Source of the DNA: a virus
IMG/VR virus record: IMGVR_UViG_3300037859_000002
Location: 47,212-111,211 of that record
Direction: 5' to 3' (one strand)
DNA: 64,000 bases
A model generated the notes under the pieces. It was given only the letters and a program-made list of their open reading frames with translations. It was not told the DNA's origin and did no database searches. Position 1 is the first letter of the stretch. Each line of letters begins with the position of its first letter. A program made the translations under genes and the position numbers. Of this stretch, positions 1-64,000 are shown piece after piece.

Positions 1-90
1 GTAGAATCTGCTGGAGTCGGTCGAGGCGAATTTCATGGCCAGCCGCGCGTAGTTGGCGCGGATGATCAGGCGCGGTCGTGGTTCCGGCAT
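1..90 (-). CDS. small array gene, partial (runs off window)
   Basis: ATG at 90 with AAGGAGA RBS just after hammerhead HH1. Confidence 0.6.
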   Translation of the reverse strand, partial: MPEPRPRLIIRANYARLAMKFASTDSSRFY

Positions 91-104
91 GGCCGGTCTC
101 CTTT

Positions 105-167
105 GCGCTTTCGCCCGCCCATGCTGGGGCGGGCTCGTCAGTCCCCGCCACATGGCGGGGCGAGCGC
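105..167 (-). ncRNA. hammerhead ribozyme HH1, type III
   Basis: GCGCUC / stem I CCCCGCC-GGCGGGG / CUGACGA / stem II GCCCGCCC-GGGCGGGC / GAAA GCGC; triplet CUC. Confidence 0.9.
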
Positions 168-186
168 GACCGGGCGCTGGGCCCGG

Positions 187-699
187 TCACCAGTCTTCGG
201 CCAGGCTCTCATAGAGCCGGCCCGCTTCGTCGTATTCATGGACGGCGTGCCATTCGACCATCGCCAGTCGCTGGGGCAGCTCGGCGAATTTGAGATGCTT
301 GGCCCGGTCCGGCCACGAGAGCGTCGACCACCGGGCGGCAAGCCACCGGTCGACCTGCTCGCCCCAGTCCTCGCACAGACAGCCGTAGTTCTCGAGCTGC
401 TCGTGCAGCTCGAGGAGCGTGTCCATCGTGCCGTCCTGGCCCTCGTGGATGGCCAGGATTTCGATCTGTTGATCGATCTGGGGGAGGCCCAGCTCAGCGG
501 CGGTGAAGACCTTGCTGCTCGCGTTGTCGGGCCAGCCGAAGACGGAGAGCAGCATTCCCCAGTCGGCCTGGGCCCTGGGGCCATCGCTCGGGTTCCACCA
601 GCCGACGCCGAGCCAGGCCCCGAAGGGCGCGGGCAGACGGCGGCGGTCGAGCGGCGCGATCGAGCCGATGGCGATGGCGCGCATCATGTCGTTCGACAT
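187..699 (-). CDS. hypothetical protein
   Basis: 170-aa ORF bounded by HH2 and HH1, with RBS. Confidence 0.75.
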   Translation of the reverse strand: MSNDMMRAIAIGSIAPLDRRRLPAPFGAWLGVGWWNPSDGPRAQADWGMLLSVFGWPDNASSKVFTAAELGLPQIDQQIEILAIHEGQDGTMDTLLELHEQLENYGCLCEDWGEQVDRWLAARWSTLSWPDRAKHLKFAELPQRLAMVEWHAVHEYDEAGRLYESLAEDW

Positions 700-708
700 G
701 GTGTGTGT

Positions 709-765
709 TTCCCTTTCGCCGCTACTGGCGGCTCTTCAGGCCCCACACTCTGTGGGGTCGAGGAA
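709..765 (-). ncRNA. hammerhead ribozyme HH2, type III
   Basis: UUCCUC / CCCCACA-UGUGGGG / CUGAAGA / GCCGC-GCGGC / GAAA GGGAA. Confidence 0.9.
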
Positions 766-794
766 GCCCCCGCCACAGGGGCGGGGGCGCAGGT

Positions 795-1220
795 TCAGGC
801 GCGCGACTTGATCGGGATCGTGGTCACCGTGGCCGAACCCTTGTGGTCGACGGCGATGACCTGGATCGGCGGTACCGCGACGGGCCCTTCGTGCCAGGCG
901 ACGAGCGGCGCGAGCTCCTCGAGTGAGGAGCGCGCGTCGGTCCAGTCCTCGGGCGGGTCGTTGCCGACAAGGATGCCGGTGCCGACCAGGGTGCCCGTCG
1001 TCACCGACGGGATCCGGAAGGCCGGGGCCCTGGGGAACTTGAGCAGCCCTTCGTCGTCGACGAGCAGGATGTCCCCGTTGGGGAGCCTGCCGCCGACGCA
1101 GAAGAACCCGTTGAGCGTGGCGCGCGCCCAGCGGCCGAACTCGGCGATCTGGTCGCGCGCGTGGGGTGCCCGCTCTTCGCGGATCTCACGCTTGGCGGGG
1201 TCGATGATCAGGACTCTCAT
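795..1220 (-). CDS. DUF3846-like phage protein
   Basis: MRVLIIDP start after GAGGA RBS; DILLVDDEGLLK and LVGTGILVG motifs (family recalled from memory). Confidence 0.6.
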   Translation of the reverse strand: MRVLIIDPAKREIREERAPHARDQIAEFGRWARATLNGFFCVGGRLPNGDILLVDDEGLLKFPRAPAFRIPSVTTGTLVGTGILVGNDPPEDWTDARSSLEELAPLVAWHEGPVAVPPIQVIAVDHKGSATVTTIPIKSRA

Positions 1221-1229
1221 GTGGGTCGT

Positions 1230-1299
1230 GTTCCTCTTCAGTGCCACCCTGATTGGTGGCAGACCCACCCTGGCGTGGGGCCAGGGTGGTTTCGGATCA
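1230..1299 (-). ncRNA. hammerhead ribozyme HH3, type II
   Basis: UGAUCC GAAA / stem III CACCCUGGC-GCCAGGGUG / GUC / UGCCACC-GGUGGCA / CUGAAGA GGAAC. Confidence 0.9.
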
Positions 1300-1539
1300 G
1301 GCTGGTCGCAGACTGACGACCTTGCCGCCCGAGGTGTTCATGACGCGTCGGGCCAGCAGTTCCTGGCGGCGTTCGTGGGTGAGCCCCGCGAGGGGCAGGG
1401 CCACGATCAGCAGGGCCAGCATTGGCAGCGCCCCGGCCGCGGCCGCGATGGGCACGAGCCTGTCGATGGCGTAGCCGATGGCCAGGCCGATGCCGATTTC
1501 GCCGGCAAAGAGCAGCCGTTCGAGCGTCGGTTCTTCCAT
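1297..1539 (-). CDS. small membrane protein
   Basis: 80 aa with two hydrophobic segments; bounded by HH4 and HH3. Confidence 0.7.
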   Translation of the reverse strand: MEEPTLERLLFAGEIGIGLAIGYAIDRLVPIAAAAGALPMLALLIVALPLAGLTHERRQELLARRVMNTSGGKVVSLRPA

Positions 1540-1545
1540 GGGAGT

Positions 1546-1616
1546 TGATCCTCTTCAGCGCCACCTTGATTGGTGGCCGACGCGCCCCGGCCATGGGCCA
1601 GGGCGGTTTCGGATCA
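1546..1616 (-). ncRNA. hammerhead ribozyme HH4, type II (identical to HH20)
   Basis: UGAUCC GAAA...GUC G GCCACC-GGUGGC G CUGAAGA GGAUCA; perfect 6-bp stem II. Confidence 0.92.
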
Positions 1617-1973
1617 GGCGGGTCGGTCAGGATGGTAGTCGAGCGCGCGCTTCAGCCGTGCGACCAGCGTACGTGGCTTGCTCTCGAGGCCGAACAGCGA
1701 CTCGGACACCTGCTTTGTGATGCCAAAGAACACGGGTCCGATGGACTCGCTGCGGACTTCCTGTTCCCCGACAAAGGGGAACAACATGCGCCCGTCGTCG
1801 AACAGGTGGCGCAGCGTCAGTCCCTCGTTCTGCATCTCGGGCGTCATGGCCGCGTGGCCGATGATGCACCCGGGGCTGCCACAGAAGTCGGTCCAGCGGG
1901 TCATCACCAGCTGATCGGGCGGAATGCTCGCCGCCAGGTCGGTGACGAAGGCCAGCCTCTCGTAGGGTGTCAT
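1614..1973 (-). CDS. CGxxxCIxGH family protein (paralogue 1)
   Basis: CGSPGCIIGH..PEMQNEGL; similar to 2617-2997 and 62482-62865. Confidence 0.75.
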   Translation of the reverse strand: MTPYERLAFVTDLAASIPPDQLVMTRWTDFCGSPGCIIGHAAMTPEMQNEGLTLRHLFDDGRMLFPFVGEQEVRSESIGPVFFGITKQVSESLFGLESKPRTLVARLKRALDYHPDRPA

Positions 1974-1980
1974 GCGCGTG

Positions 1981-2051
1981 GTTCCTCTTCAGGCCCGCGG
2001 GATTGCGGGCAGAGCGGCCCCGCCGCGGTGCGACGGGGTGCTTTCGGATCA
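1981..2051 (-). ncRNA. hammerhead ribozyme HH5, type II
   Basis: UGAUCC GAAA GC...GCUC U GCCCGC-GCGGGC CUGAAGA GGAAC; one extra U after the cleavage triplet. Confidence 0.85.
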
Positions 2052-2252
2052 GTCTTCGGGAGGCGCCCTCACCACGGGATACGGGTAGCCCAGCGCGGTC
2101 ATGACCCGTTCGTGGATCTCGCACGCGTGGTCCCGGTCTTCCTCGTTCCAGGTGGGGCGGCCCTGCCGGCGGCGCCGGCGGTGGGCCGCGTCGGTGCCCG
2201 CCGCGTGGGCGAGCCCGAGGGCCTCCTGGTAGCTGTCAGCGCGGATGGGCAT
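2049..2252 (-). CDS. hypothetical protein
   Basis: short ORF overlapping its upstream gene and ending in HH5; start uncertain. Confidence 0.6.
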   Translation of the reverse strand: MPIRADSYQEALGLAHAAGTDAAHRRRRRQGRPTWNEEDRDHACEIHERVMTALGYPYPVVRAPPED

Positions 2253-2541
2253 CGACGCCCTCGCCGTTGACGGCGTGGCCCACCAGGGTGCCGTAGCGGC
2301 GCCTGGTCGCGTGGGCCATCATGGCCAGGGCTTCGCGCACGCGGCGGGCATCGGCCGCGATCGACAGGAGCTCCGTTTCGGGCACCTGTTCGACCCCCTC
2401 GGGAAAGCGTTGCTGGATCTGCTCGGCGATGTCCTGCACGAGCCTGCAGCAGGCTTTCATCTGGGTGGCCACGGCGTTGCCCGAGGGCATGGAGTCGAGC
2501 GCGAGCGTGAGCCAGTCGTCGGGCAGTTGGTGTTGAGGCAT
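2236..2541 (-). CDS. hypothetical protein
   Basis: 101-aa ORF; RBS lies in HH6. Confidence 0.7.
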   Translation of the reverse strand: MPQHQLPDDWLTLALDSMPSGNAVATQMKACCRLVQDIAEQIQQRFPEGVEQVPETELLSIAADARRVREALAMMAHATRRRYGTLVGHAVNGEGVDAHPR

Positions 2542-2546
2542 CTGGT

Positions 2547-2619
2547 TGATCCTCTTCAGTGCCGGCGATGGTGCCGGCCGAGCGTCCCCGCCGCGATGCG
2601 ACGGGGCGCTTTCGGATCA
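2547..2619 (-). ncRNA. hammerhead ribozyme HH6, type II
   Basis: UGAUCC GAAA GCG..CGCUC G GCCGGC-GCCGGC A CUGAAGA GGAUCA. Confidence 0.92.
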
Positions 2620-2997
2620 GGTTGTGACCGGCTCTTTCAAAAGCCGGTCGATCAGGGCCAGCTGCCGGTCCTTGGTCTGGTGCCGGGGCCGGGCATCATC
2701 GGAATAGAACAGCACGGTCCCGGCGTCGTTGCTGATGCCGAAGAACTCGGACAGGCCGATGTTGCCGACGGGGTTGCCGTTGACGGTCGGCGAAGGCCAG
2801 GGGCCATCGGTCAGCTCCAGGCCCTCGGCCTGGAGGACCGGATCCTGGGCACCGTGGCCCGCGATGCACGCGGTGGTGCCGCACTGTGAAACCCAGGCGC
2901 TCATGTGGATTGCTTGGGCCGGTGTGTTGGCGATGACCTTGCGCAGGCGGGCCAGCCGCTGTCGCGGCGTCAGGCCAACGGGTTCCGGGTCTGTCAT
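2617..2997 (-). CDS. CGxxxCIxGH family protein (paralogue 2)
   Basis: GLTPRQRLARLR..CGTTACIAGHGAQDPVLQAEGL. Confidence 0.8.
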   Translation of the reverse strand: MTDPEPVGLTPRQRLARLRKVIANTPAQAIHMSAWVSQCGTTACIAGHGAQDPVLQAEGLELTDGPWPSPTVNGNPVGNIGLSEFFGISNDAGTVLFYSDDARPRHQTKDRQLALIDRLLKEPVTT

Positions 2998-5802: not shown

Positions 5803-6645
5803 ATGCCTAAGGGCCACCCGCCCTCCATCTGGGCCAGCATCCGCGCCGACTATGTCGCAGGCCTGGGCACGACCAACGACCTGGCCCGAACCTATGGCGT
5901 CGACGCCTCGGGCATCCGCAAGCGCCGCATCCTCGAGGCCTGGCCCGAACCGGGCGAACGCATCGTAGACACCGCCCTCTACAGGACCAAATCCAAGCAG
6001 GGTGTGAAACCCGCAGATCAAGCCCCGCGCTCGCCAAAGCAGCAGGCCGGAACACATTTCACACCCGAGGGTGTGAAACCCATGGAACACCCTGGAACAC
6101 CCCCCCGGACGGGCGTGCTCCAGAAGCCCCGAACGCGAGAGCAGGCGCTGCTCATGGCCGCCGAACGCGAGTTCGTCCGAGACCTCGCCATCATCGACGC
6201 CATCGCCCCCAAGGCGGCAGCCCTCATCGAAGACCACCTGGCCCGGACCGCCCAGCTCAAGCAGCACTTCACCCGGCTCCACACCCTCCTGGGCAACCTC
6301 ATCCACGACGACCCCCAGAAGCGCGCGACCGCACAGGACGTGCTCGGCCAGGTGCCGCCCGAAACGGTGCTGAACACGATGCTCAACCTGGCCTCGTCGA
6401 TCCAGCGGCTCGAGCGCCAGTCGCTGCAGCTCGACATGGGGCCCCGGCGCCTCGAGCTCACCGGCAAGGACGGGGCGCCGCTGCCCGCCACCCAGGTCAA
6501 CGTCGGTGTGGGCGTGAAGCTCGACGCCAAGACCATGACGACCGAGCAGCTGGCCGCCCTGGGCTCGGTCCTGGAGGCCGTGGACGGCCAGGCGCCGCGC
6601 ACGGCGCTGAAGCGTCCGCCCCAGGGGCCGATGATTGAGGGCTGA
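5803..6645 (+). CDS. terminase small subunit-like protein
   Basis: N-terminal HTH (WASIRADYVAG..LARTYGV..IRKR), C-terminal ELTGKDGAPL motif, upstream of TerL. Confidence 0.65.
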   Translation: MPKGHPPSIWASIRADYVAGLGTTNDLARTYGVDASGIRKRRILEAWPEPGERIVDTALYRTKSKQGVKPADQAPRSPKQQAGTHFTPEGVKPMEHPGTPPRTGVLQKPRTREQALLMAAEREFVRDLAIIDAIAPKAAALIEDHLARTAQLKQHFTRLHTLLGNLIHDDPQKRATAQDVLGQVPPETVLNTMLNLASSIQRLERQSLQLDMGPRRLELTGKDGAPLPATQVNVGVGVKLDAKTMTTEQLAALGSVLEAVDGQAPRTALKRPPQGPMIEG

Positions 6646-6649
6646 GCAG

Positions 6650-7390
6650 CGCCGGCCTTTCTTCGTGCGTCGGGCCCGTGGTAGAACGCGCGTCGCTACT
6701 GCCGAGGTCACGCTCGGCGTGAGTCCTGCGATGGCCTGGCCAGATCGGGCGGGGCGCTCCCCGCGGACATCGAGCACAGGGCGAACGGTGGAAGTAACGC
6801 CCCTCCAGTAGCCACTTGCACGGCACATCGAAGTGTGAGATACGGTGCGGGCTGCTTGGCGATCAGGCCCGTTACTTTGGAAACTGTAGGTCGTCCGTTC
6901 AAATCGGACCAGCGGTCGCAAGGCTGCTGTAGCTCAGCCTGGTAGAGCAACGGTATGAAACGGACCGCCCTAAATTCCGGCGGCAACTGCTAACCCATCC
7001 GGCCAGGGGTTGTGGCCGGGGACCGAGATGAGTGCCCCGCGAGGGGAGCCAAGCCCCCACAGGGGGCCGCCCGGTTGATCACCGGGCGCTCGGAGGAATT
7101 CAGTTCTGCGGTGGCCGGTACGAAGCGCGAGCAAAGAACCTCGTCGCCCCACGGGCAACCTTACAGTAGGGGCTGGCTACGCCCGGCACACGCAAGTGGG
7201 ATGCCGGCAACGTCGCAAAGCCAGTTCGGCCGCCCGGGACGCCGGGGCGCTCGGCCGACGTGTTGGCCATCGCAGAAGCCAGCTGATTTGGGGTGGTGTT
7301 CTCGGCCCGCATTTCGTGGGCCAAAGCCTTGATAAAACGAGCGTATGTGCTGGTGCCCTTGAGCTGGTCTGGCCATCGCGGAAGCCTTCG
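6650..7390 (+). ncRNA. large structured ncRNA candidate (possibly GOLLD-like)
   Basis: ~740 nt without a credible ORF; many hairpins with GNRA-type loops; internal 17-nt repeat; abuts tRNA-Met; ends approximate. Confidence 0.45.
6883..6954 (+). ncRNA. circularly permuted tRNA-like domain
   Basis: order is anticodon-stem 3' strand, variable loop, T arm, acceptor stem capped by GCAA, D arm, anticodon-stem 5' strand. Confidence 0.75.
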
Positions 7391-7392
7391 GA

Positions 7393-7469
7393 TGCAGGGT
7401 AGAGCAGCCCGGTAGCTCGTCTGGCTCATAACCAGAAGGTCGCCCGTTCGAATCGGGCCTCTGCAACCA
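7393..7469 (+). tRNA. tRNA-Met (CAT), initiator-like
   Basis: full cloverleaf; GAGCAGCCCGGTAGCTC D arm; CT-CAT-AA loop; TTCGAAT; encoded CCA. Confidence 0.92.
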
Positions 7470-7517: not shown

Positions 7518-8006
7518 ATGCCCATCAACAAAGCCGTGCTTCATGTCTTGGAGCAAATAGAGCGGTCGCTCCGTATCAAGCTGCGGCCGCCGCCGCTCTC
7601 CGAACACGAGTTCGTCGCCGGATTGGACCGACACTATCCCGATCTGCCTGCCGCGCGCCGCGCTGCCCTCATCCAGGAATTCGCGGCCATGCAGAGGTTG
7701 GGGCCGCTCCGCAAGGAACGGGCCGCGGCCGCCCTCGAGGATATGCGGTCGGGCGCCAGCCGCGATCCCAGAGCGCAGGCCATCATCGAGATCCTGGATA
7801 TTCTCGGCCCACCCCCTGAAAACCCAGGGGCCGTACCGCTGGTCGGCGGCTTCCGTGAGCGTGTGGCCCGCAATCGCCAGGAGAAGGACCGGGAAAAGTG
7901 GCAGGACAAACTGCGGGAACGGTCCAAAGCCATGGCCAGAGCGAGATACAAGGCGCGCAAGGAGCGCCAGCTGGCCGAGTTGAATAACCTCCAGTCTGCT
8001 GGGTAG
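7518..8006 (+). CDS. hypothetical basic protein
   Basis: 162-aa ORF between the tRNAs. Confidence 0.65.
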   Translation: MPINKAVLHVLEQIERSLRIKLRPPPLSEHEFVAGLDRHYPDLPAARRAALIQEFAAMQRLGPLRKERAAAALEDMRSGASRDPRAQAIIEILDILGPPPENPGAVPLVGGFRERVARNRQEKDREKWQDKLRERSKAMARARYKARKERQLAELNNLQSAG

Positions 8007-8021
8007 CTTCCACAGGCTTTC

Positions 8022-8096
8022 GCCCCGCTAGCTCAATGGCAGAGCGCCCCCTTTGTAAGGGGATGGTTGCCGGGTCGAAACCGGCGCGGGGCTCCA
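8022..8096 (+). tRNA. tRNA-Thr (TGT)
   Basis: cloverleaf GCCCCGC...GCGGGGC T CCA; TT-TGT-AA loop; atypical T loop GTCGAAA. Confidence 0.88.
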
Positions 8097-15897: not shown

Positions 15898-17226
15898 GTG
15901 CGCCTTGACCTGATCAAGAGCGATCTGGCCGAGGTCGGGGCGCTGCTGAAGATGTTCGACGAGGCGCGGGTTCGCCGCGACCGGGCCGGTCGCTTCGCCG
16001 ACCAGGGGGGCGGCCCCAGCCAGCGCCAGCCCGGCCAGGTCCCATCTGCGGCGCCGGTGCGCACCCGCTACGCCTCGTCCAAGGTGTTCCGCATGGCCTC
16101 GGCGACCGAGGCCCCGACCAGCACCTTCGGTGAGGTCGATCACCTGCCGCAGCGGCCGCGCAAGATGGCCGCCGCGGAATACGCGGGGCTGCGCCAGGCG
16201 GCCCAGGCCATCGCGCGCGATCGCCGGCCAGCATACCTCGAGCGCGCGGCCGAGCGGGGTCTGATCCCCGAGGGCGCCACCCCCAGGGCCGTGCGCCTTG
16301 CCTATGCGCACGCGGTTTCCCTGGCCCAGCACGACGCTGGCCTGCACCGCTATGACTACAAGCTCTCGGCTGAGACCAAGGTCGAGCTGACGCCGCTGCT
16401 GCCGTTCATGCGGTATGCGCGCAAGCGCATGGCCAACGAGCTCGGGGCCGAGCAGGGTCCGGCCCTGGCGAGCATCCGTGCCGCCTTCGGCACCCCCTTC
16501 GCGGACGGGCGGACCGACGTGAAGATCAAGGCCGTCGGCGCGGCCCGCGCCCGGCGCGATGGGCTGATCGAGGCCGCGCGCGCCAAGGGCCTCATCGGCG
16601 AGACCGATGATCCAGGCGACGTGCGCGCCGCCTATGACTACGCGGTGCGCCAGACCATGCTCGACCAGGGCACGCGCACCTATCGGGGTGCCCGCCTGGG
16701 CCAGCCCCGGCTCCTGCCCTTCGTCGAGATGGCCAGCGCCGATCTCAAGGAGGTGCTGCCGACCGAGGGTCAGGCGCGCGTCAGGATGGCGCCGCGGAGC
16801 GAGCTCGCCGACTACGCGGTGCGGGCGCCCGACCCGGTCAAGGTCGCGGACATCATGCGCGAGTTCAAGCGCGGCCGGCTCCGCTCGGGTCGCAACGGCC
16901 CCGTGGTCAAGGACCGCCAGCAGGCCATGGCGATCGCCCTGTCGATGGGGCGGCGCGCCTCGCCGGAGGAGCGGGTGGCCAAGGCCTTCGCCGACCTGGT
17001 GCTGCGCAAGGGCCTGGCCACACTGGTGGCGATCGACACGACCACCGTGGCCCGCCGCGCCCGCTGGGCCGGCGCGGCCCTGAACAACCAGCCGCAGATG
17101 CGCCCGCCCACCACCCTGGCCCAGAAGGCCCTGGCCGATCGGCGTTCGGAGATCGCGCAGCGCGCGCGATACCAGCGCACACGCCTCAGCCAGAACATCG
17201 CGACCTCGCCGATCTGGCGGCGCTGA
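15898..17226 (+). CDS. head-associated protein (RDxxGRF motif, DUF6496-like segment)
   Basis: RRDRAGRFA; KVADIMREFKRGRLRSG...QQAMAIALS. Confidence 0.65.
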   Translation: MRLDLIKSDLAEVGALLKMFDEARVRRDRAGRFADQGGGPSQRQPGQVPSAAPVRTRYASSKVFRMASATEAPTSTFGEVDHLPQRPRKMAAAEYAGLRQAAQAIARDRRPAYLERAAERGLIPEGATPRAVRLAYAHAVSLAQHDAGLHRYDYKLSAETKVELTPLLPFMRYARKRMANELGAEQGPALASIRAAFGTPFADGRTDVKIKAVGAARARRDGLIEAARAKGLIGETDDPGDVRAAYDYAVRQTMLDQGTRTYRGARLGQPRLLPFVEMASADLKEVLPTEGQARVRMAPRSELADYAVRAPDPVKVADIMREFKRGRLRSGRNGPVVKDRQQAMAIALSMGRRASPEERVAKAFADLVLRKGLATLVAIDTTTVARRARWAGAALNNQPQMRPPTTLAQKALADRRSEIAQRARYQRTRLSQNIATSPIWRR

Positions 17227-35486: not shown

Positions 35487-38400
35487 ATGGACGTGGCCAG
35501 CCTCTCCTTCTCGATCGACAGCGGCCCGGCGGAACGGGCCATCACCTCGCTCGACCGGCTTCGCTCCTCGGCCGACAGCATGGGCCGCTCAAGCGCCCAG
35601 CTGAACCAGCAGTTCAGCCAGGGGGTGCGCTCGCTCACCGACTACCAGCGCGCGACCCTGCTGTTGGGCGAGACCGCGAGCAAGACGGCCAAGAGCCTGG
35701 ACGACCTGGTGGGCAAGATGGATACCCTGACCAGGGGCAGCGTCTTCTCCGGCGGCTCGGGCATGATGGAGCTGCAGAAGCAGCTCGAGAGCATGAGCCG
35801 CCTGTATGGCCAGTCGGCCGCCTCGGCCGAGAACTTCGTGCGCGCGACCCGCGCGATCGGGCTCTCCGCGGGCGAAACCTCGACGGCGCTCCAACGCATC
35901 ACCCTCGCACTCGAGAACGTCACGGCCGAGGGCCGCCAGGCGCGCTCGGTCCTAGAGCAGTATGGCGTGACCCTGAACGGGCTGGGCCTGCGTGACGCCG
36001 AGAGCGTGCTCCGCAATTTCACCAGCAGCGTTCGGGGTTCGCGCGACAGCCTGCAGCGCACCCGCGACATCCAGATGGTCTTCGGCCCCCTGTCGAGCGA
36101 GAGCGCAGACGCGCTCAGTCGCCAGCGGTTTCTCACCGAGGACCAAAGGCGCCGCGATCTCGAGAGCAACGACGCGAGCCGCCGGGCCGCCGCGGCCCGT
36201 GAGCTGGCTTCTGGGGGCGCCTCCTTGGCCGAGCGCAACCGCGCGAGCCTCGAGGCGCTGCGCTCCGACTTCGGCATGCAGGGCCCCGACCTCGGCCGCA
36301 TGTTCCGCTTCGGCCAGAGCGAGCGCGACGTGCTGCTCTCGCGGCGCAACCAGTACGAGGCCTTCCGGCGCGGCGAGGGCCCGGCCCCGGATGGGCTGCT
36401 CAACATCTACGCCAACCAGGCCACGGACCGGATGTTCGGTGGCATCCGGCGCTGGTACGACAATTTCGCCACCGGGGGCTTCGCCGCCCGCCAGGGTGTG
36501 GCCGGGGCCGCCAGCGACTTCTTCAGCGGTGACGTGGGACCCATCACGGGCGCCTATGCGTATGCGTCGATCACGGCGCGAAATCTGCTGAACATGGGGC
36601 CCAGCGACTATGAGGGCCGGCTGCAGCGCGCGATCGAGGAAAATCGCCTGCCCGAGAGTGCCCGCGACCGCCAGATGCGCCGGCTCAGCCAGGCCCAGTC
36701 CCTTCAGCTGATGGGCGACACCGGCATGGCCGGTCTGGTGGCGGCTGAGAGCGCCAACGAGGAACTGGTCCGCAACTACATCCCCACCGCGACGGGCGCG
36801 GGCATCGCCCTGCCCGACGCCCAGCGGCGCTTCAACCGGATCTACGGCAGCAACGCCTTCCGCGGCTCGGTCGCGGCCGATCCGTCCATCGGTTTCGACT
36901 ACCAGGCGCGCCTGCAGGGCGGCAACCTCGACAGCGTCGGGGCCTTCCAGCGCCGGCTGTTCGCCGCGCAGTACGCCCAGAGCCTGGGCATCAGCCCATC
37001 GGACTTCGATCTCGGCGGCGAGAACCTGTTTACCCAGGGGGAATCCGACGTCTTTGGACGGCTCTTCGCGAGCCAGACCTCGGCGCCGATCCTGCGCCAG
37101 TCCAACACCCAGCGTCGGCTCTCTGAGAATGTCGGGGGTGCCGTGCGCGGCGGCTTTAACCGCGGTGAGCGGGGCGCCGCGATCGAGGACCTACAGACCT
37201 CGGAACTCGCCTACCAGCAGGTGCTCGAGCAGACGGGCGATCGCGTGCGCGCCCTGGCCGTGGCCGAGAACGAACTGGCCCAGGCGCGGGATCGGCGCCG
37301 CACCGCCGCGGTCGCCACGATCGCCCAGATGAAGGACGAGGCCGAGGCCGCCGAGACGCTGGCTCGCGCCCTGGGCGGCTTCCCCGGTTCGCAGGCGGAC
37401 GTTGCGCGCGGCTACCGCGCCCAGCTGGGCATCGAGACCCGCCGGCGCTTCGAGGCCAACCCTCTCGAGGGGACAGAGGACGAGATTCGCCAGCGCCTGG
37501 CGCGTCGGGACACCGGGCAGTTTCTCATCCAGGGCCAGGGCCGGATCTCGGATCTGCGTGGCCAGGCCGAGATCAGTCGCGCCCTGCTCGCGGCCGTGCC
37601 GCGAGGGAGCCTCGCGGTCGAGGACGCCCAGCGCAACGCGAGCATCGACCGGGAAGAGGCCCAGGGCCTGGCCCGGGCTCGCGCCGCCGGCGACGTCGAG
37701 GCCGAGCAGGCCATCCGGTCGTACATCGCCTCGCTGCGCGAGCAGTCTCAAGCCACCGCCGAGGCCGGTCGCGCGGTCGCGACCCTGACGTCCCAGATGC
37801 GCGTCCTCGCCTCGATCGAGACCTCCAACGAGCTCGCGGGCATGAACCAGGGCCAGCAGCAGCGCGAGCAGTTCGTGCTCAACCAGGCGCGCGGCCGCGC
37901 CGGATTGGAGAACGCCACGCCCTCCACGGTGCCGCCCGAAGTGCGCGCCGAGCTCGAGGCCCTCTACGAGGCCCAGAGGCGGCCCGGGAACCGTGTCGCC
38001 ATCGACAACGCGCGTCAGCGTGAGGCCCTGGCCCGCGCCGGGGTCGCCCCCACGGGCGCGGGCGCCGCAGCCGCCAGGGCGCGTGTGGCGCGCCAGTTCG
38101 CGATCGGCACCCAGGGCGAGGATCCGGCCGTTGCCGACGCCAACTACCGGGCCGCCCTGTCCGAAATCGGCTCGGGCGTCGCCGGCTCGGGCGTCCAGGG
38201 GATCTTCCAGACAGAGCAGGACACGCTGGCGCGCGCGCGGCGCACCAATGCGCTGCTCACGCGCGGGCGCGCGGGTGCCGCGATCGAGGGCATCGACGCC
38301 CAGGTGGCCCAGCGCATCGCCCTGGGCGGGGCCGCCGCGGGGCAGGGGCCGGCCCTGCGGGGCGCCCTGCTCGGGAACCTGGTCGAAAGCGAGCGCGGCG

Positions 38401-59180: not shown

Positions 59181-59230
59181 ACGCACGAAAGGCCCCCGGG
59201 GGAGTGATCCCTCGGGGGCCTTTTTTGCGT
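59181..59230. terminator. intrinsic terminator between convergent modules (probably bidirectional)
   Basis: AAAGGCCCCCGGGGGA-loop-TCCCTCGGGGGCCTTTTTT. Confidence 0.88.
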
Positions 59231-59231
59231 T

Positions 59232-59786
59232 TCAGGAGCTGCTGTTGATCGCGGCATTGCACAGCACATTGGCGATGGTCGGCGCCGTATGTTCGGTCCG
59301 GACGGTCGGCTCTCCCGGGTGCCATGAGCCGGGGCGGCTGATCCGATAACGGTGATTGTGAACCACCAGGGTCGGAACATGCACCATATCCGGGTGGGGC
59401 TCTTCGACGAGCGTGTCGAAAACCCAGCTGTCGCCAATGTACCGCGCAACCAGCAGACGTCCCACCCTGTCTGGTAAGATCGCCCTGGCGCCAATGGCGA
59501 CGGGATGTAACAGGTCGAAACCTCCGTTCCACCCGTATCGCAGCGCCTCGTTGATCAAGAGCAGTCCGCTGATGATCCATTCTGCATCGTCGTGGTCCCA
59601 CGGTGTGGGCGCTTGCCACGGCTGATCGATGAGCCGCGCGACCACCGCTTGAGTTTCCTCGAAGCGATGGCGTCGGGCGTTATCCATGCCTGGAGCATGC
59701 CCGCGTCTGGCGGCCATTTCACTGTGGATATGGGCATCGAGGTCGAGCAGGCGCTTCGTCAGCAGGATGACGGGCTCTGTGTTCAT
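59232..59786 (-). CDS. hypothetical protein
   Basis: MNTEPVILL... after GAGGAG RBS. Confidence 0.7.
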   Translation of the reverse strand: MNTEPVILLTKRLLDLDAHIHSEMAARRGHAPGMDNARRHRFEETQAVVARLIDQPWQAPTPWDHDDAEWIISGLLLINEALRYGWNGGFDLLHPVAIGARAILPDRVGRLLVARYIGDSWVFDTLVEEPHPDMVHVPTLVVHNHRYRISRPGSWHPGEPTVRTEHTAPTIANVLCNAAINSSS

Positions 59787-59792
59787 CGGTTT

Positions 59793-59858
59793 CTCCTCAG
59801 CGCCGGTCGATGATGGCCGGCAGAGCCGCACCGGGATCTTCCCGGTGGGCTTTCGTCA
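59793..59858 (-). ncRNA. hammerhead ribozyme HH14, type II (stem II reduced to ~1 bp)
   Basis: UGAC GAAA GCC..GGCUC UGCCGG-CCGGCG CUGAGGA G. Confidence 0.7.
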
Positions 59859-60206
59859 TTCCTTCAGGGGCAGCACGCCGAGTTGCTTCAAAGACTCATA
59901 GGTCGCAAGCCCCCGCGTTGAGCCGTACATGGTCAGGCCCATGGCATCGAGTTTCTCGACGATGGCAAGCACGTGCTGGGCGGCCATCTGTTCTCCCAAT
60001 TTTTTTGTGCTGACGTGGAGCGAGTGCTGCGCGACTCTTTGCCACACGGTGTCACCTGTGTGATCGGTGGGAAAATAGCGCCAACCCTCGCAGACGGTTC
60101 TCAGGGTTTCCTGATCGGCTGCGGCGCGTGGGACCTGGACAGACCAGGTGCCGGAAAAGGGTTCGAAACTGACGTAGTAGGCTCGACTTAGATCAAGTAC
60201 TGTCAT
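59856..60206 (-). CDS. hypothetical protein
   Basis: MTVLDLSR... after GAGGAG RBS. Confidence 0.7.
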   Translation of the reverse strand: MTVLDLSRAYYVSFEPFSGTWSVQVPRAAADQETLRTVCEGWRYFPTDHTGDTVWQRVAQHSLHVSTKKLGEQMAAQHVLAIVEKLDAMGLTMYGSTRGLATYESLKQLGVLPLKE

Positions 60207-60214
60207 CGGATAGC

Positions 60215-60283
60215 TCCTCTTCATGGGGATGATTCCCCGACCGTTCCCCCTGAGTCAAAGCTCAGGGGGCCGGTTTCGGATCA
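60215..60283 (-). ncRNA. hammerhead-like RNA HH15, type II, AUGAAGA core variant
   Basis: UGAUCC GAAA CCG..CGGUC GGGGA-UCCCC AUGAAGA GGA. Confidence 0.7.
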
Positions 60284-60793
60284 GTCGAGGCAGTGGCCGC
60301 GCACGCGATCATAGACCTCGCCCGTGTCCTGTCTGAGCATGTCTCCATACTCGAGCAGGGCCAGGCACGCGGGCGCGCTCGACTGGCGCAGGATATAGAT
60401 CCGGCTCCGGGGGTCGGAGCCGTTCCAGAAATCCTGGCACTGGAGGTGCTCGCGCTCGGTGTAGTCGGGCTCATCGAGCACCGGGTAGTCGTGGTAGCGC
60501 TCCACGATCGCGTCGGCCCGTTCCAGCAGCTCATGGGCGTCGGCCTTGATCATGATGACCTCGACCCAACCGCACAGCGCGTGCGTGCAGTGGGTGACGA
60601 CCACGCCGTCGCTCTCGCCTCCGATGGCGCTGAGTGCGGCATCGAAGTTGGAGAGCTCGAGCGGGCCGCTGTCGCGGTTGCGACCGAAGAAGCGGTACCA
60701 GCCGTCCCATTGGGTGCCCACGTAACGGGCGGGCCACTCCTGGTCATAATCCTCCCAGCGCTGCAGGTGCAGCGGCGTGTAGGGGTCGTCCAT
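60281..60793 (-). CDS. phage hypothetical protein
   Basis: MDDPYTPLH..., RDS..LELSNF, GWVE, DYPVLDE. Confidence 0.75.
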   Translation of the reverse strand: MDDPYTPLHLQRWEDYDQEWPARYVGTQWDGWYRFFGRNRDSGPLELSNFDAALSAIGGESDGVVVTHCTHALCGWVEVIMIKADAHELLERADAIVERYHDYPVLDEPDYTEREHLQCQDFWNGSDPRSRIYILRQSSAPACLALLEYGDMLRQDTGEVYDRVRGHCLD

Positions 60794-60799
60794 TGTGGT

Positions 60800-60870
60800 T
60801 GACCTCGTCAGCGCCGGCGATGGTGCCGGCCGAGCGTCCCCGCCGCGATGCGACGGGGCGCTTTCGGTCA
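60800..60870 (-). ncRNA. hammerhead ribozyme HH16, type II (near copy of HH6)
   Basis: UGACC GAAA...CUC G GCCGGC-GCCGGC G CUGACGA GGUCA; compensatory one-pair indel in stem II relative to HH6. Confidence 0.92.
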
Positions 60871-61263
60871 GGCGGACACGGGCACCGGGCCGGTGATCCA
60901 TTCGCTCTCGTCGTGACGGATCACGATCGACTGGTGCCGGTCGTTGTAGACCACCGGGGCCTGCATGCCTGCGTCGGCCCAGCTTCGGAGCCGATTACCG
61001 TTTTCGACGGCGAAGGCCCAGGCGACTGCCGCAGGATCGTCGGACTGGTAGTAGGCCCGGACCTCGTAGTAGGTGCCGAACTCGTGCGGGTTGCCGCGGA
61101 TCTTCATGGTCAGGCCCACGGGCGGCGCGCCATAGACGCGCTCGATGGCCAGCATGAAGGCGCGGCATTCCAGGCGATTGCAATCGCCTGCGTTCTCGGT
61201 GATGCCGGTGGCGGCGCCCTCCTCATACGAAGGACCGCTCCCGAAGTCGGTGAAGGTGGACAT
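60868..61263 (-). CDS. phage hypothetical protein
   Basis: MSTFTDFGSGP..., NPHEFGTYYEV. Confidence 0.75.
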   Translation of the reverse strand: MSTFTDFGSGPSYEEGAATGITENAGDCNRLECRAFMLAIERVYGAPPVGLTMKIRGNPHEFGTYYEVRAYYQSDDPAAVAWAFAVENGNRLRSWADAGMQAPVVYNDRHQSIVIRHDESEWITGPVPVSA

Positions 61264-61268
61264 GTGGT

Positions 61269-61339
61269 TGACTTCTTCAGGCCGGCGACGATGCCGGCAG
61301 ACACGCCCTGCCCGACGATGGGCAGGGGTGTTTCGGTCA
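61269..61339 (-). ncRNA. hammerhead ribozyme HH17, type II
   Basis: UGACC GAAA CAC..GUGUC U GCCGGC-GCCGGC CUGAAGA AGUCA. Confidence 0.8.
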
Positions 61340-61612
61340 GGCTGATTTCGGGATCGAGCCGGGTGCCGCCAGCACGAAGCCATGAACATAGGCTCGATCG
61401 CACTGGCCGACGACTTCGGTGATCGCGTCGTCGCTCATGGAGGACTCAGGTTCCTTCATGAACTCGCCCTCTGGCAGGTAGTTGGAGCAAATGGCCACCG
61501 CTTCGCGCACGGCGACTTCCCAGTCGCTGTCGAGCAGGAACCAGGCAAAGGCCTCGGTGTGGTCGACGCCTTTGCCGAGCGGCTGAGTCTGCAATCCGAA
61601 GATCCAGCTCAT
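61337..61612 (-). CDS. hypothetical protein
   Basis: 91-aa ORF between HH18 and HH17. Confidence 0.7.
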   Translation of the reverse strand: MSWIFGLQTQPLGKGVDHTEAFAWFLLDSDWEVAVREAVAICSNYLPEGEFMKEPESSMSDDAITEVVGQCDRAYVHGFVLAAPGSIPKSA

Positions 61613-61618
61613 GGCTTT

Positions 61619-61673
61619 CCCTTTCGCCGGCGTGCTGGCCGGCTCTTCAGCCCCGCCGATGGGCGGGGAAGGG
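61619..61673 (-). ncRNA. hammerhead ribozyme HH18, type III
   Basis: CCCUU / CCCCGCC-GGCGGGG / CUGAAGA / GCCGGC-GCCGGC / GAAA GGG. Confidence 0.92.
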
Positions 61674-61682
61674 CGCCCGCGG

Positions 61683-61916
61683 CTACGGGGCGGGCGGCAG
61701 GACGCGGATGGTTTCGCCCGTCGTCTGCGATGAGCAGGCGAAGCTCGCGCCCCTGGACTGGGTTTGGTAAATCAGCCGCCGCGTGGCTTCGCCAGCGGTC
61801 TGGCATGCCTCCAATGAGGCATAGACCGCGGTCATGACCGTCGGCGGAACCGTCGGTGGATTGGCAACCACGCCCGGGCTGCTCCAGATCCAGAATATCA
61901 GCACCCATCCGGACAT
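61683..61916 (-). CDS. small hypothetical protein
   Basis: GGAGG RBS; hydrophobic N-terminus; SLEACQ...FACS. Confidence 0.65.
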   Translation of the reverse strand: MSGWVLIFWIWSSPGVVANPPTVPPTVMTAVYASLEACQTAGEATRRLIYQTQSRGASFACSSQTTGETIRVLPPAP

Positions 61917-61961
61917 GCTTGGCCCTCCCCCTGTGAGGGGTCGCAGCCTATCAGAGCCGGG

Positions 61962-62027
61962 TGTCGCTCGTCAGTGCCCATTGGGCAGACGCACCGCCCG
62001 GACAACCCGGACGGGCGTTTCGGATCA
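61962..62027 (-). ncRNA. hammerhead ribozyme HH19, type II (irregular stem II)
   Basis: UGAUCC GAAA CGC..GCGUC UGCCC-GGGCA CUGACGA GCGACA. Confidence 0.8.
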
Positions 62028-62408
62028 GGGACTGTTCGGCTCATAGGTCAGGCTGGGCTTCACGTTCTTGACGTGGAGCACGCCGTGGCCATCGGTGCGG
62101 CCCAGAAATTCATAGGCGCGATCCGCCAGCTTCTGGATCTCGGCGGCCTGATGGCCGAAGGCAAGGGCCTGCATGTAGATCGCGACCAGGCCGCGGTTGC
62201 TGCCCCCCAGCGCGAATGGTTCGGGAGAGACCTCCCCGATCCAGATTTCGGTGGAGAGGCGGCGGATGTTCAGATCGAAGCTGCCATCTGGGTTTTCCCA
62301 GAGCGCGGCGCGGTAGTGCCTGTGCACGGCCTCCTTCAGGATGTGCTGGTTGATTTTCTCGGGCGTGGCATCGCGAATGAGCTGGAACAGTTCGAAAGCT
62401 GTGCTCAT
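62025..62408 (-). CDS. hypothetical protein
   Basis: MSTAFELFQL... after HH20. Confidence 0.7.
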   Translation of the reverse strand: MSTAFELFQLIRDATPEKINQHILKEAVHRHYRAALWENPDGSFDLNIRRLSTEIWIGEVSPEPFALGGSNRGLVAIYMQALAFGHQAAEIQKLADRAYEFLGRTDGHGVLHVKNVKPSLTYEPNSP

Positions 62409-62413
62409 CAGGT

Positions 62414-62484
62414 TGATCCTCTTCAGCGCCACCTTGATTGGTGGCCGACGCGCCCCGGCCATGGGCCAGGGCGGTTTCGGATCA
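62414..62484 (-). ncRNA. hammerhead ribozyme HH20, type II (identical to HH4)
   Basis: same 71 nt as 1546-1616. Confidence 0.92.
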
Positions 62485-62865
62485 GGCTTCGACACGCTCT
62501 TCCAGGAGCTGGTCCATCAGGGCCAGCTGCCGAGCCTTGGTTTCTTCCCCTGCCGGAGCAATGAGGTCGTAAAACAAAGCAGTCACCATCCTGGGATCAT
62601 TGATACCGAAGAACTTGGCCAGTTCCTGCGGTCTGTTGTGGAACAGCCCATGGATGCTGAGGCTCCCCGTGAGCGGCAATAGATTCAGTCCCTCGGCCTG
62701 GAGGACGGGATCCATGGCACCGTGTCCTGCGATGCACGCGGTGGTGCCGCACACGGACCTCCATTTGGCCATCTCGATCGTCTCGGCCGGGGTATCGGCG
62801 ATGACCTCGCGGAGGCGGGCGAGCCGCTGCCGCGGGGTCAGGCCGACGCGTTTTTGGAACTTCAT
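62482..62865 (-). CDS. CGxxxCIxGH family protein (paralogue 3)
   Basis: GLTPRQRLARLR..CGTTACIAGHGAMDPVLQAEGL. Confidence 0.8.
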   Translation of the reverse strand: MKFQKRVGLTPRQRLARLREVIADTPAETIEMAKWRSVCGTTACIAGHGAMDPVLQAEGLNLLPLTGSLSIHGLFHNRPQELAKFFGINDPRMVTALFYDLIAPAGEETKARQLALMDQLLEERVEA

Positions 62866-62873
62866 CGGATAGC

Positions 62874-62942
62874 TCCTCTTCATGGGGATGATTCCCCGAC
62901 CGCTCCCCCCGAGTCAAAACCCAGGGGGGCGGTTTCGGATCA
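62874..62942 (-). ncRNA. hammerhead-like RNA HH21, type II, AUGAAGA core variant
   Basis: near copy of HH15. Confidence 0.7.
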
Positions 62943-63269
62943 GAAATCTGGGCTCTCGCCCAGGTCGTCGCGGTCCATGCCGTCGACGCGGTCGGCCTTG
63001 GCCTTCCGCGCGTTCAGTTCATCCCGATTGCGCGGGTTGAACTGGCTGCGACGCCAAGCCGCCCGGGCGAGCTTGCGATCGAAGAACACGCGATCGCGCT
63101 TGATCACCGTGGTTCTTGCGGACCACTTGTTCTTGATCCCCTGGGTGAGGATGTTGATGTGCTCCTCGCCGTTGCTGCCCAGCGCCAGGCCTAGCTTGGT
63201 GCCGCCCGGGGCGAGGTACCAGATCTTGGTTTCTGCGTAGAGGCGATAGTCATCGGCGGTGATGATCAT
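62940..63269 (-). CDS. hypothetical protein
   Basis: 109-aa ORF with ATGA overlap. Confidence 0.7.
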   Translation of the reverse strand: MIITADDYRLYAETKIWYLAPGGTKLGLALGSNGEEHINILTQGIKNKWSARTTVIKRDRVFFDRKLARAAWRRSQFNPRNRDELNARKAKADRVDGMDRDDLGESPDF

Positions 63270-63469
63270 TGACCGACCCCTTTCTCAGCCGAGGCGGGGA
63301 TGATCATCACGCACTCGAGGTGCTTGCCCCGGTCGAACAGATCGATCTGGATACCCTTGCTGGCGCGGGCGGCGCGCGCGAGGGAGGCCCTCGCAGCATC
63401 CAGGTTGCGATGCCGAGACAGGACGTTCCCTCCTCGGACGACGCTCAAAGGATACTGGTTCGTGTACAT
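63266..63469 (-). CDS. hypothetical protein
   Basis: 67-aa ORF after HH22. Confidence 0.7.
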   Translation of the reverse strand: MYTNQYPLSVVRGGNVLSRHRNLDAARASLARAARASKGIQIDLFDRGKHLECVMIIPASAEKGVGQ

Positions 63470-63477
63470 GGGGTGTT

Positions 63478-63535
63478 TCCCTTTCGCCGGCGTCTGGCCG
63501 GCTCGTCAGGCCCCACGCGGTGTGGGGTCGAGGGA
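63478..63535 (-). ncRNA. hammerhead ribozyme HH22, type III (related to HH2)
   Basis: UCCCUC / CCCCAC-GUGGGG / CUGACGA / GCCGGC-GCCGGC / GAAA GGGA. Confidence 0.92.
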
Positions 63536-63577
63536 GCCCCCGCCACAGGGGCGGGGGCGCAGGTTCAGAAGATGCGG

Positions 63578-64000
63578 TCAGCCGGAAATCAGGATGATTC
63601 CGGAGCCTGGACCGCCGAGCTTCACCTTCTTGCGGGCCGCCATGTCCGGCCAGGTGCAGCGCACCAGGTCGGCGGGGCCGCGCTCGAGCATGACCTCGCG
63701 CTCATTGTTGTCGCTGAGCGCCGAGAACCAGTAACCGGCGTACTCCTCGAACACCGCGTTGGTGTCGAAGGCGTACGCGCAATCGGTGAGTTCGCTCGTA
63801 TCCCACGGCCAGGGCCAGCCCTCGGCCGGCCAGGTCGCATCGTCTCGGGTCTTGAGGAAGGCGTCGACCTGCAGGCGGAAATCCGCTTCGGTCTGGGCCT
63901 CTCGGAGCGCCAGTGGGACGTCGTAGCCGTCCCAGGCGATGCTTCCCAGCCATTCGGCTTCGGGGCCGCGCCCGACGTAGAAATCAGCTCTGGTGCCCAT
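63578..64000 (-). CDS. phage hypothetical protein
   Basis: MGTRADFYVGRG..AEWLGSIAWDGY, WPWPW. Confidence 0.75.
   Translation of the reverse strand: MGTRADFYVGRGPEAEWLGSIAWDGYDVPLALREAQTEADFRLQVDAFLKTRDDATWPAEGWPWPWDTSELTDCAYAFDTNAVFEEYAGYWFSALSDNNEREVMLERGPADLVRCTWPDMAARKKVKLGGPGSGIILISG

Follow-up and report, generated by a model that had tools for sequence, protein, structure and literature searches.

Organization of the Right Hammerhead Array

The DNA analyzed here (the window; 64,000 nucleotides, bases 47212-111211 of the 111,211-bp IMG/VR provirus record IMGVR_UViG_3300037859_000002, whose completeness is estimated at 93%) ends with an array of small genes separated by hammerhead ribozyme motifs, which we call the right array. 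Between window positions 64000 and 59232 the - strand contains 11 open reading frames (ORFs) of 67-184 amino acids (aa) (Table 1), and the codon-position GC content of all 11 was typical of real genes (GC3 of 0.67-0.88, with GC3 > GC1 > GC2). Hammerhead folds were found at 9 of the 10 junctions among these genes, seven of type II and two of type III, all on the - strand, and the only junction that does not contain one is the ATGA overlap of genes 2 and 3 (63269-63266). The nine spacers measure 69-108 nt and carry one hammerhead-type fold each; in the type II spacers, 69-74 nt in length, the ribozyme occupies the whole interval from the stop codon to the start codon. HH17 is the only hammerhead in the array that does not abut a start codon: between it and the ATG at 61916, window positions 61917-61957 hold an additional hairpin (CCCCUCACAGGGGG) and a distinct Shine-Dalgarno sequence, GGAGGG. 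Gene 11 ends 8 nt away from a terminator hairpin with a 17-bp stem, a T-run on the + strand and a weaker T-run on the - strand, and this terminator is strong for the convergent + strand operon and weaker for the array.

The original prediction had proposed nine hammerheads, HH14 to HH22, separating small - strand genes with the same architecture as a second array at the left end of the window (the left array). All nine were recovered with the proposed positions and types, the proposed common architecture with the left array was supported, and the array was indeed found to end at a convergent terminator, the 17-bp hairpin at 59187-59224 with T-runs on both strands.

Table 1. Features of the right array and of the provirus record. 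Coordinates are those of the window unless marked otherwise; cuts are predicted.
Feature	Coordinates	Strand	Remarks
Gene 1	63578-64000	-	140 aa; ORFan; no Pfam, PHROG or NCBIfam match
Extra hairpin of HH14	63536-63558	-	GC-rich, -21 kcal/mol; directly 5' of HH14 stem III
HH14, type III	63535-63478	-	UCCC-UC, cut, stem I, CUGACGA, stem II GCCGGC/GCCGGC, GAAA-GGGA; cut after 63530
Gene 2	63266-63469	-	67 aa; ATGA overlap with gene 3
Gene 3	62940-63269	-	109 aa; ORFan
HH15, type II	62942-62874	-	core AUGAAGA (C3A); cut after 62898 if active
Gene 4	62482-62865	-	127 aa; two further paralogues elsewhere in the record, all three hammerhead-flanked
HH16, type II	62484-62414	-	core CUGAAGA, GUC, G.G at 1.1/2.1; cut after 62447
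Gene 5	62025-62408	-	127 aa; ORFan
HH17, type II	62027-61958	-	core CUGACGA, GUC, 1-bp stem II; cut after 61988
Gene 6	61683-61916	-	77 aa; weak match to PHROG 3766 (function unknown)
HH18, type III	61673-61619	-	CCC-UU, cut, core CUGAAGA, stem II GCCGGC/GCCGGC, GAAA-GGG; cut after 61669
Gene 7	61337-61612	-	91 aa; ORFan
HH19, type II variant	61339-61269	-	core CUGAAGA, GUC; cut after 61300 if active
Gene 8	60868-61263	-	131 aa; ORFan
HH20, type II	60870-60800	-	core CUGACGA, CUC, G.G at 1.1/2.1; cut after 60832
Gene 9	60281-60793	-	170 aa; ORFan
HH21, type II	60283-60215	-	core AUGAAGA (C3A); 94% identical to HH15; cut after 60239 if active
Gene 10	59856-60206	-	116 aa; ORFan; GC 57%
HH22, type II	59858-59793	-	core CUGAGGA, CUC, U.G at 1.1/2.1, 1-bp stem II; cut after 59823
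Gene 11	59232-59786	-	184 aa; ORFan; final array gene
Bidirectional intrinsic terminator	59187-59224		common to the array and the convergent + strand structural/late operon
124-127-aa family (gene 4 type)	62482-62865; 2617-2997; L045 15660-16031		three copies
RtcB-family RNA ligase	record 1-1407	+	phage or host-flank gene; record starts at its ATG
Two tRNA-Arg genes	record 1464-1653	+	
Integrase	record 1848-2888	-	adjoins the tRNA-Arg genes
Ro60/TROVE-VWA protein gene	record 5904-7445	-	
tRNA with CUA anticodon	record 7984-8059	-	

Detection and Conservation of the Hammerhead Fold

Hammerheads were searched for with a descriptor that demanded NUGANGA, GAAA and a UH site together with three helices, for which energy thresholds were set. 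In the 111-kb record it gave 24 matches on the - strand, at about 20 distinct sites, and none on the + strand, and ten shuffled records gave 0-2 matches each, with a mean of 0.7. All of the matches were located at gene junctions of three leftward small-gene arrays. The structural operon, 51 kb in length, contained no match, and no spurious match came from 288 kb of unrelated loci, the only two hits there being real hammerheads that had been brought in by a pattern scan. The Rfam model Hammerhead_II (RF02276) reported all seven type II copies of the right array at 13-28 bits, the top score being that of HH17 (28 bits). Neither HH14 nor HH18 was reported by Hammerhead_3 (RF00008) at E<=10, and the assignment of these two copies rests on the descriptor and on the unconstrained minimum free energy (MFE) fold. 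Such a fold reproduced the three-way junction for HH14, HH16, HH18, HH19 and HH20, and for HH14 it coincided with the hammerhead fold.

The core C3-U4-G5-A6-N7-G8-A9 was present in seven of the nine copies (as CUGACGA, CUGAAGA or CUGAGGA) but not in HH15 and HH21, which have AUGAAGA. G12-A13-A14, A15.1-U16.1 and a nucleotide other than G at position 17 were found in all nine, with GAAA, and with U16.1 followed by C (seven copies) or by U (HH18); seven of the nine retain the complete set of 11 invariant core nucleotides plus the UH. The three helices follow the type II/III strand order, and stems I and III (or I and II) form in every copy. Six copies have an open helix of 3-6 bp; that of HH17 and of HH22 consists of 1 bp only, and that of HH19 of 4 bp beyond an A.C mismatch. 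The core-adjacent pairs (1.1-2.1, 10.1-11.1 and 15.2-16.2) are all paired in HH14, HH15, HH17, HH18 and HH21, and also in HH22 with a U.G wobble. HH14 and HH18 show every consensus feature, and HH17 and HH22 have full cores, paired core-adjacent positions and a 1-bp stem II, a state reported to be active when a pseudoknot helps (PMC3088659). The sequences kept in the loops are AUC/AAUC in loop I and, in the type III copies, CCAG in loop II.

Base pairs were counted by hammerhead numbering; MAFFT put stems I and III in differing registers. Among 22 cleanly parsed copies there were 16 distinct stem I helices and 15 distinct closed helices, and each position used 3-4 Watson-Crick or wobble pair types. 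Moreover, hammerheads flank all three gene 4 paralogues of the record on both sides, with stems that have no common sequence and with the fold kept. The covarying helices and the fold kept around the gene 4 paralogues indicate selection on the fold.

Layout of the Ribozyme Junctions and Proposed Processing of the Transcript

In all seven type II copies, the UGA stop codon of the upstream gene constitutes the outer part of the stem II 3' strand (UGAUCC, UGACC or UGAC), 1-3 nt before GAAA, as in HH16, whose 6-bp stem II (UGAUCC/GGAUCA) has the stop codon within it, and in HH20, with a 5-bp stem II (UGACC/GGUCA). In HH15, HH16, HH20, HH21 and HH22, G8-A9 and the stem II 5' strand spell GAGGA or GAGG 7-12 nt before the ATG, and in type III copies GAAA-GGG(A), which provides the stem III 3' strand, lies 6-9 nt before the ATG. 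This placement makes it likely that the ribosome-binding site is paired within the sole helix that joins the two cleavage products.

A second regularity concerns the product ends. Stem III of the type II copies is long (26-33 nt, 10-14 bp, -17 to -26 kcal/mol), and the 10 type III copies of the record all have an extra hairpin 0-2 nt before stem III with a mean of -20.3 kcal/mol, as compared with -8.4 +/- 3.6 kcal/mol for random 32-mers of the same strand. Therefore, in both types the upstream product would terminate in a strong hairpin, with 2-7 nt left between this hairpin and the cut; the UAG stop codon of gene 6 sits in the loop of the hairpin 5' of HH18. The RNA 3' of the scissile bond opens with the stem I hairpin in both topologies.

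On this sequence evidence we consider it probable, with a probability of about 0.7, that the right array belongs to a leftward polycistronic operon of small accessory genes, of which it is the end far from the promoter (promoter-distal), and that the transcript is self-cleaved into hairpin-capped single-gene mRNAs with a freed Shine-Dalgarno sequence. In such a process, the copies with an intact core would cut the nascent transcript co-transcriptionally after U16.1-H17, and the 3-6-bp helix, as the only link between the two products, would then melt. Single-gene mRNAs would be released with a 5'-OH beside the 5' hairpin and a 2',3'-cyclic phosphate beside the 3' hairpin, the ribosome-binding site of each of them would become unmasked, and the stability and translation of each cassette would thereby be uncoupled from those of its neighbors.

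Several observations weigh against this processing. No copy reached the Rfam gathering score (37 for RF02276 and 48.5 for RF00008), and the strict criteria of Perreault et al. admit only HH14, HH17, HH18 and HH22. The cores of HH16 and HH20 are complete and their stem II measures 5-6 bp, but they carry G.G at 1.1/2.1, and HH19, which scored 23.8 bits with Rfam, has a double defect, i.e. an unpaired U1.1 and an A.C at 10.1/11.1. In HH15 and HH21, A3 breaks the C3-G8 pair; because C3 pairs with G8 and the natural covariation of this pair has been reported only as U3-A8 (PMC3088659), these two copies are probably slow or dead, and HH19, like them, may be slow-cutting or non-cutting. As to tertiary contacts (loop-loop or pseudoknot), complementarity between loop I and the tail exceeded that of shuffles only in HH22, in which a 6-bp pairing of loop I (UCAUCG) with CGAUGA at the start codon is possible (p about 0.02). 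Finally, the promoter of the array lies outside the record, and no related phage was found in searches of cultured phages, IMG/VR and metagenome contigs.

Alternative Explanations for the Ribozyme Modules

The hammerheads might also act at the DNA level. When the right array was compared by BLAST with the rest of the record, the similarity appeared as ribozyme-sized islands of 85-100% identity between unrelated genes. HH16 (62412-62487) is 100% identical over 76 nt to window positions 1544-1619. Identity is about 95% for HH20 (60796-60872) with 2543-2621 and for HH21 with record positions 36029-36109, and about 91% for HH14 (63473-63568) with 705-798. The similarity always ends at the edges of the element and the genes on either side are unrelated. 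This pattern suggests, as far as sequence comparison goes, that the modules have been copied or converted independently or that they are recombination linkers for cassettes. A second role as linkers for cassette exchange between arrays by homologous recombination, which would be compatible with cleavage, is rather unlikely, and the element alone, if converted or recently duplicated, would leave the same pattern.

Somewhat less likely still is that most copies are decayed, non-cutting derivatives that act as RNA-stabilizing or ribosome-binding-site-masking hairpins, with the C3A copies working as internal promoters in the DNA. In agreement with such decay, five of the nine copies depart from the strict consensus beside or inside the core. 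With regard to the promoters, the C3A element contains the sigma-70-like pair TTGACT-18-AATCAT, and three promoter-like sites were detected in the region as compared with 0.5 in shuffles, two of the three being this same repeat. The -35-like and -10-like hexamers are identical in all three C3A copies (HH15, HH21 and record 36048), the surrounding stem varies, and each C3A copy has two GANTC sites although the window is depleted in GANTC. The C3A copies are located at window positions 62874-62942 and 60215-60283 and at L045 ~16029-16109 (record 36029-36109), and their sequence is such that they may be ribozyme-derived internal promoters responding to methylation. As an account of most copies, however, decay does not agree with the retention of the 11 invariant core nucleotides and the UH in seven of the nine, which drift would not produce over 16 helix sets. 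Furthermore, purine-purine mismatches at 1.1/2.1 (G.G and G.A) recur with differing stems in five copies of the record and so seem tolerated, which looks like a lineage trait rather than decay, and the variants from prophage contexts that have been tested were often active (PMC3088659).

A circular product was also considered. A cleaved fragment lying between two ribozymes of the same type would begin with the 3' half of the first hammerhead and finish with the 5' half of the second. These halves could re-pair, because the open helix is near-uniform (UGAUCC/GGAUCA in type II and CCC/GGG in type III), and resealing by the reverse reaction, or by the RtcB-family ligase encoded at the left end of the record, would yield a circular single-gene mRNA that could still be translated from its internal Shine-Dalgarno sequence. 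RtcB joins a 2',3'-cyclic phosphate end to a 5'-OH end, which are the ends left by a hammerhead. In keeping with such circles, the HH16 5' strand and the HH17 3' strand can form a perfect 6-bp helix, HH17 by itself having a stem II of only 1 bp. A neighbor-specific compatibility of stem II was not found, the compatibility being generic across the copies, and we regard circularization as very improbable. Lastly, the idea that the motifs are chance matches in GC-rich intergenic hairpins, which could invoke that every Rfam score falls under the gathering threshold, is refuted by the absence of + strand matches, the mean of about 0.7 per shuffle and the lack of spurious matches in the 288 kb of unrelated loci, as compared with about 20 junction sites.

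The Provirus Record and Its Three Arrays

The + strand between the left and right arrays codes for terminase, portal, head morphogenesis, tape measure and tail fiber J proteins in a structural operon that spans 51 kb. The record is read as a siphovirus-type prophage; its prophage nature is supported by the terminase, portal, tape measure and tail fiber genes on the + strand and by an integrase. Compared with the terminases of Rhizobium, Acetobacter and Paracoccus phages, that of the record shows no more than 41% identity. The GC content of the genome is 68%, and GANTC is 2.6-fold under-represented in the window (72 sites observed, 188 expected). Scarcity of GANTC is a hallmark of alphaproteobacteria that possess CcrM, and the host is probably a high-GC alphaproteobacterium. 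Two tRNA genes, tRNA-Met(CAT) at 7393-7469 and tRNA-Thr(TGT) at 8022-8096, lie on the + strand of the window between the left array and the terminase gene.

Window position 64000 is the final base of the record and coincides exactly with the ATG of gene 1; the record is trimmed at gene boundaries. A search for attR revealed no second copy of the tRNA-Arg/integrase region (record 1464-2888) anywhere in the record, and no attR is thus visible within it. Therefore, the prophage, together with the array and its promoter, probably extends past the end of the record.

Two possibilities had been raised in the original prediction for the two arrays of the window, namely, that they are independent regions or that they are parts of one longer array on a circular or permuted genome. 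The first agreed with the extended sequence and the second did not. Beyond window position 1 the left array gains just one copy and ends after about 1 kb, and + strand genes follow at record 44.5-45.9 kb. That copy (record 46514-46459; L046 6458-6515), together with a third, separate array at record 34.2-36.1 kb, bears out the expectation that more ribozymes would be found outside the window, in this case on its left side. The final hammerhead of the left array carries U3 (UUGAAGA), is not followed by a gene and would serve only for 3'-end formation. The window itself as a circle was rejected, since it is an internal-to-end part of a longer provirus record. Should the prophage be excised as a circle, the leftward genes on the integrase side, and not the left array, would lie upstream of the right array.

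Genes of the Right Array

Searches of the 11 ORFs of the right array against Pfam, PHROGs and NCBIfam gave nothing beyond two weak matches to PHROGs of unknown function. Relatives of gene 1 with 35-51% identity were found in diverse bacteria, and no hammerhead was detected beside its homologues in 13 bacterial genomes. Gene 4 belongs to a family of 124-127-aa proteins with one member in each array, and its paralogues share 57-60% protein identity and 70-72% DNA identity with the copy of the right array. The family has a conserved motif, CGTxACIAGHG...DPVLQAEGL; the family libraries gave no match to it, and its neighbors in the ESM Atlas were only viral hypothetical proteins.

Comparison with Known Hammerhead Clusters

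Clustered hammerheads flanking individual prophage genes have been described previously, and processing into single-gene mRNAs was proposed as their role (PMC3088659). Triple arrangements from Agrobacterium, Azorhizobium and Clostridium were shown to cut in vitro (PMC3088659), and a review from 2019 considered the purpose of bacterial and phage hammerheads still undefined (PMC6765202). The right array resembles the clusters of Perreault et al. 2011 (PMC3088659) in that hammerheads of types II and III lie between small prophage genes, most of them hypothetical, and on the strand that codes for them, in the alphaproteobacterial type of host, and in the tolerance of a weak stem II and of core variants in a prophage context. 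It differs from them in its size and regularity, since 4.3 kb hold nine copies and the three arrays of the record together about 26 parsed copies, whereas the arrangements tested in 2011 consisted of three ribozymes, and in that here the ribozyme is the whole spacer. No mention is made in PMC3088659 of a stop codon in stem II, of a Shine-Dalgarno sequence in the open helix or of an obligatory strong hairpin ahead of the cut site, and its text does not contain the words "ribosome", "translation", "Shine-Dalgarno" or "stop codon".

With respect to the Rfam families Hammerhead_II (RF02276) and Hammerhead_3 (RF00008), the right array shares the CUGANGA...GAAA...UH core, the three-way junction and the strand order. 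In contrast with these families, stem III of the type II copies is, at 10-14 bp, far above the family consensus, stem II has 3-6 bp and lacks the usual pseudoknot of loop I with the tail, and mismatches at 1.1/2.1 are frequent. Arrays of this kind have been known since 2011; the present one is a large and unusually regular case and not a new kind of system.

The search for relatives gave no related array. A blastn search of the array against cultured phages returned no relative, and neither did scans of IMG/VR anchored on the 170-aa, 321-aa and TerL proteins (the best TerL match was 41% identical and came without an array) or an alignment of the gene 4 paralogues compared with metagenome and viral contigs. 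Ribozyme-specific DNA patterns retrieved only three true hammerheads, all of them unrelated (L028, L033 and L048). The last of these, at L048 4780-4830 in IMGVR_UViG_3300036980_000702, an unrelated phage contig with 41% GC, is a type III hammerhead laid out in the same way: a GC hairpin immediately precedes stem III, and GAAAGGG is followed by a Shine-Dalgarno sequence and an ATG. Phage type III copies may have such an additional 3' hairpin in general.

The right array constitutes a compact natural test bed, with nine junctions that show graded departures from the consensus. The stop codon upstream and the ribosome-binding site downstream are built into the helix that joins the products, and a strong hairpin precedes every predicted cut, a regular design that could be reused in synthetic operons. 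If the ribosome-binding sites are indeed unmasked and the ends capped by hairpins, the ribozymes would be gene-by-gene insulators of expression, and such a role would explain why they are found in the company of fast-turnover accessory cassettes and never in the structural operon.

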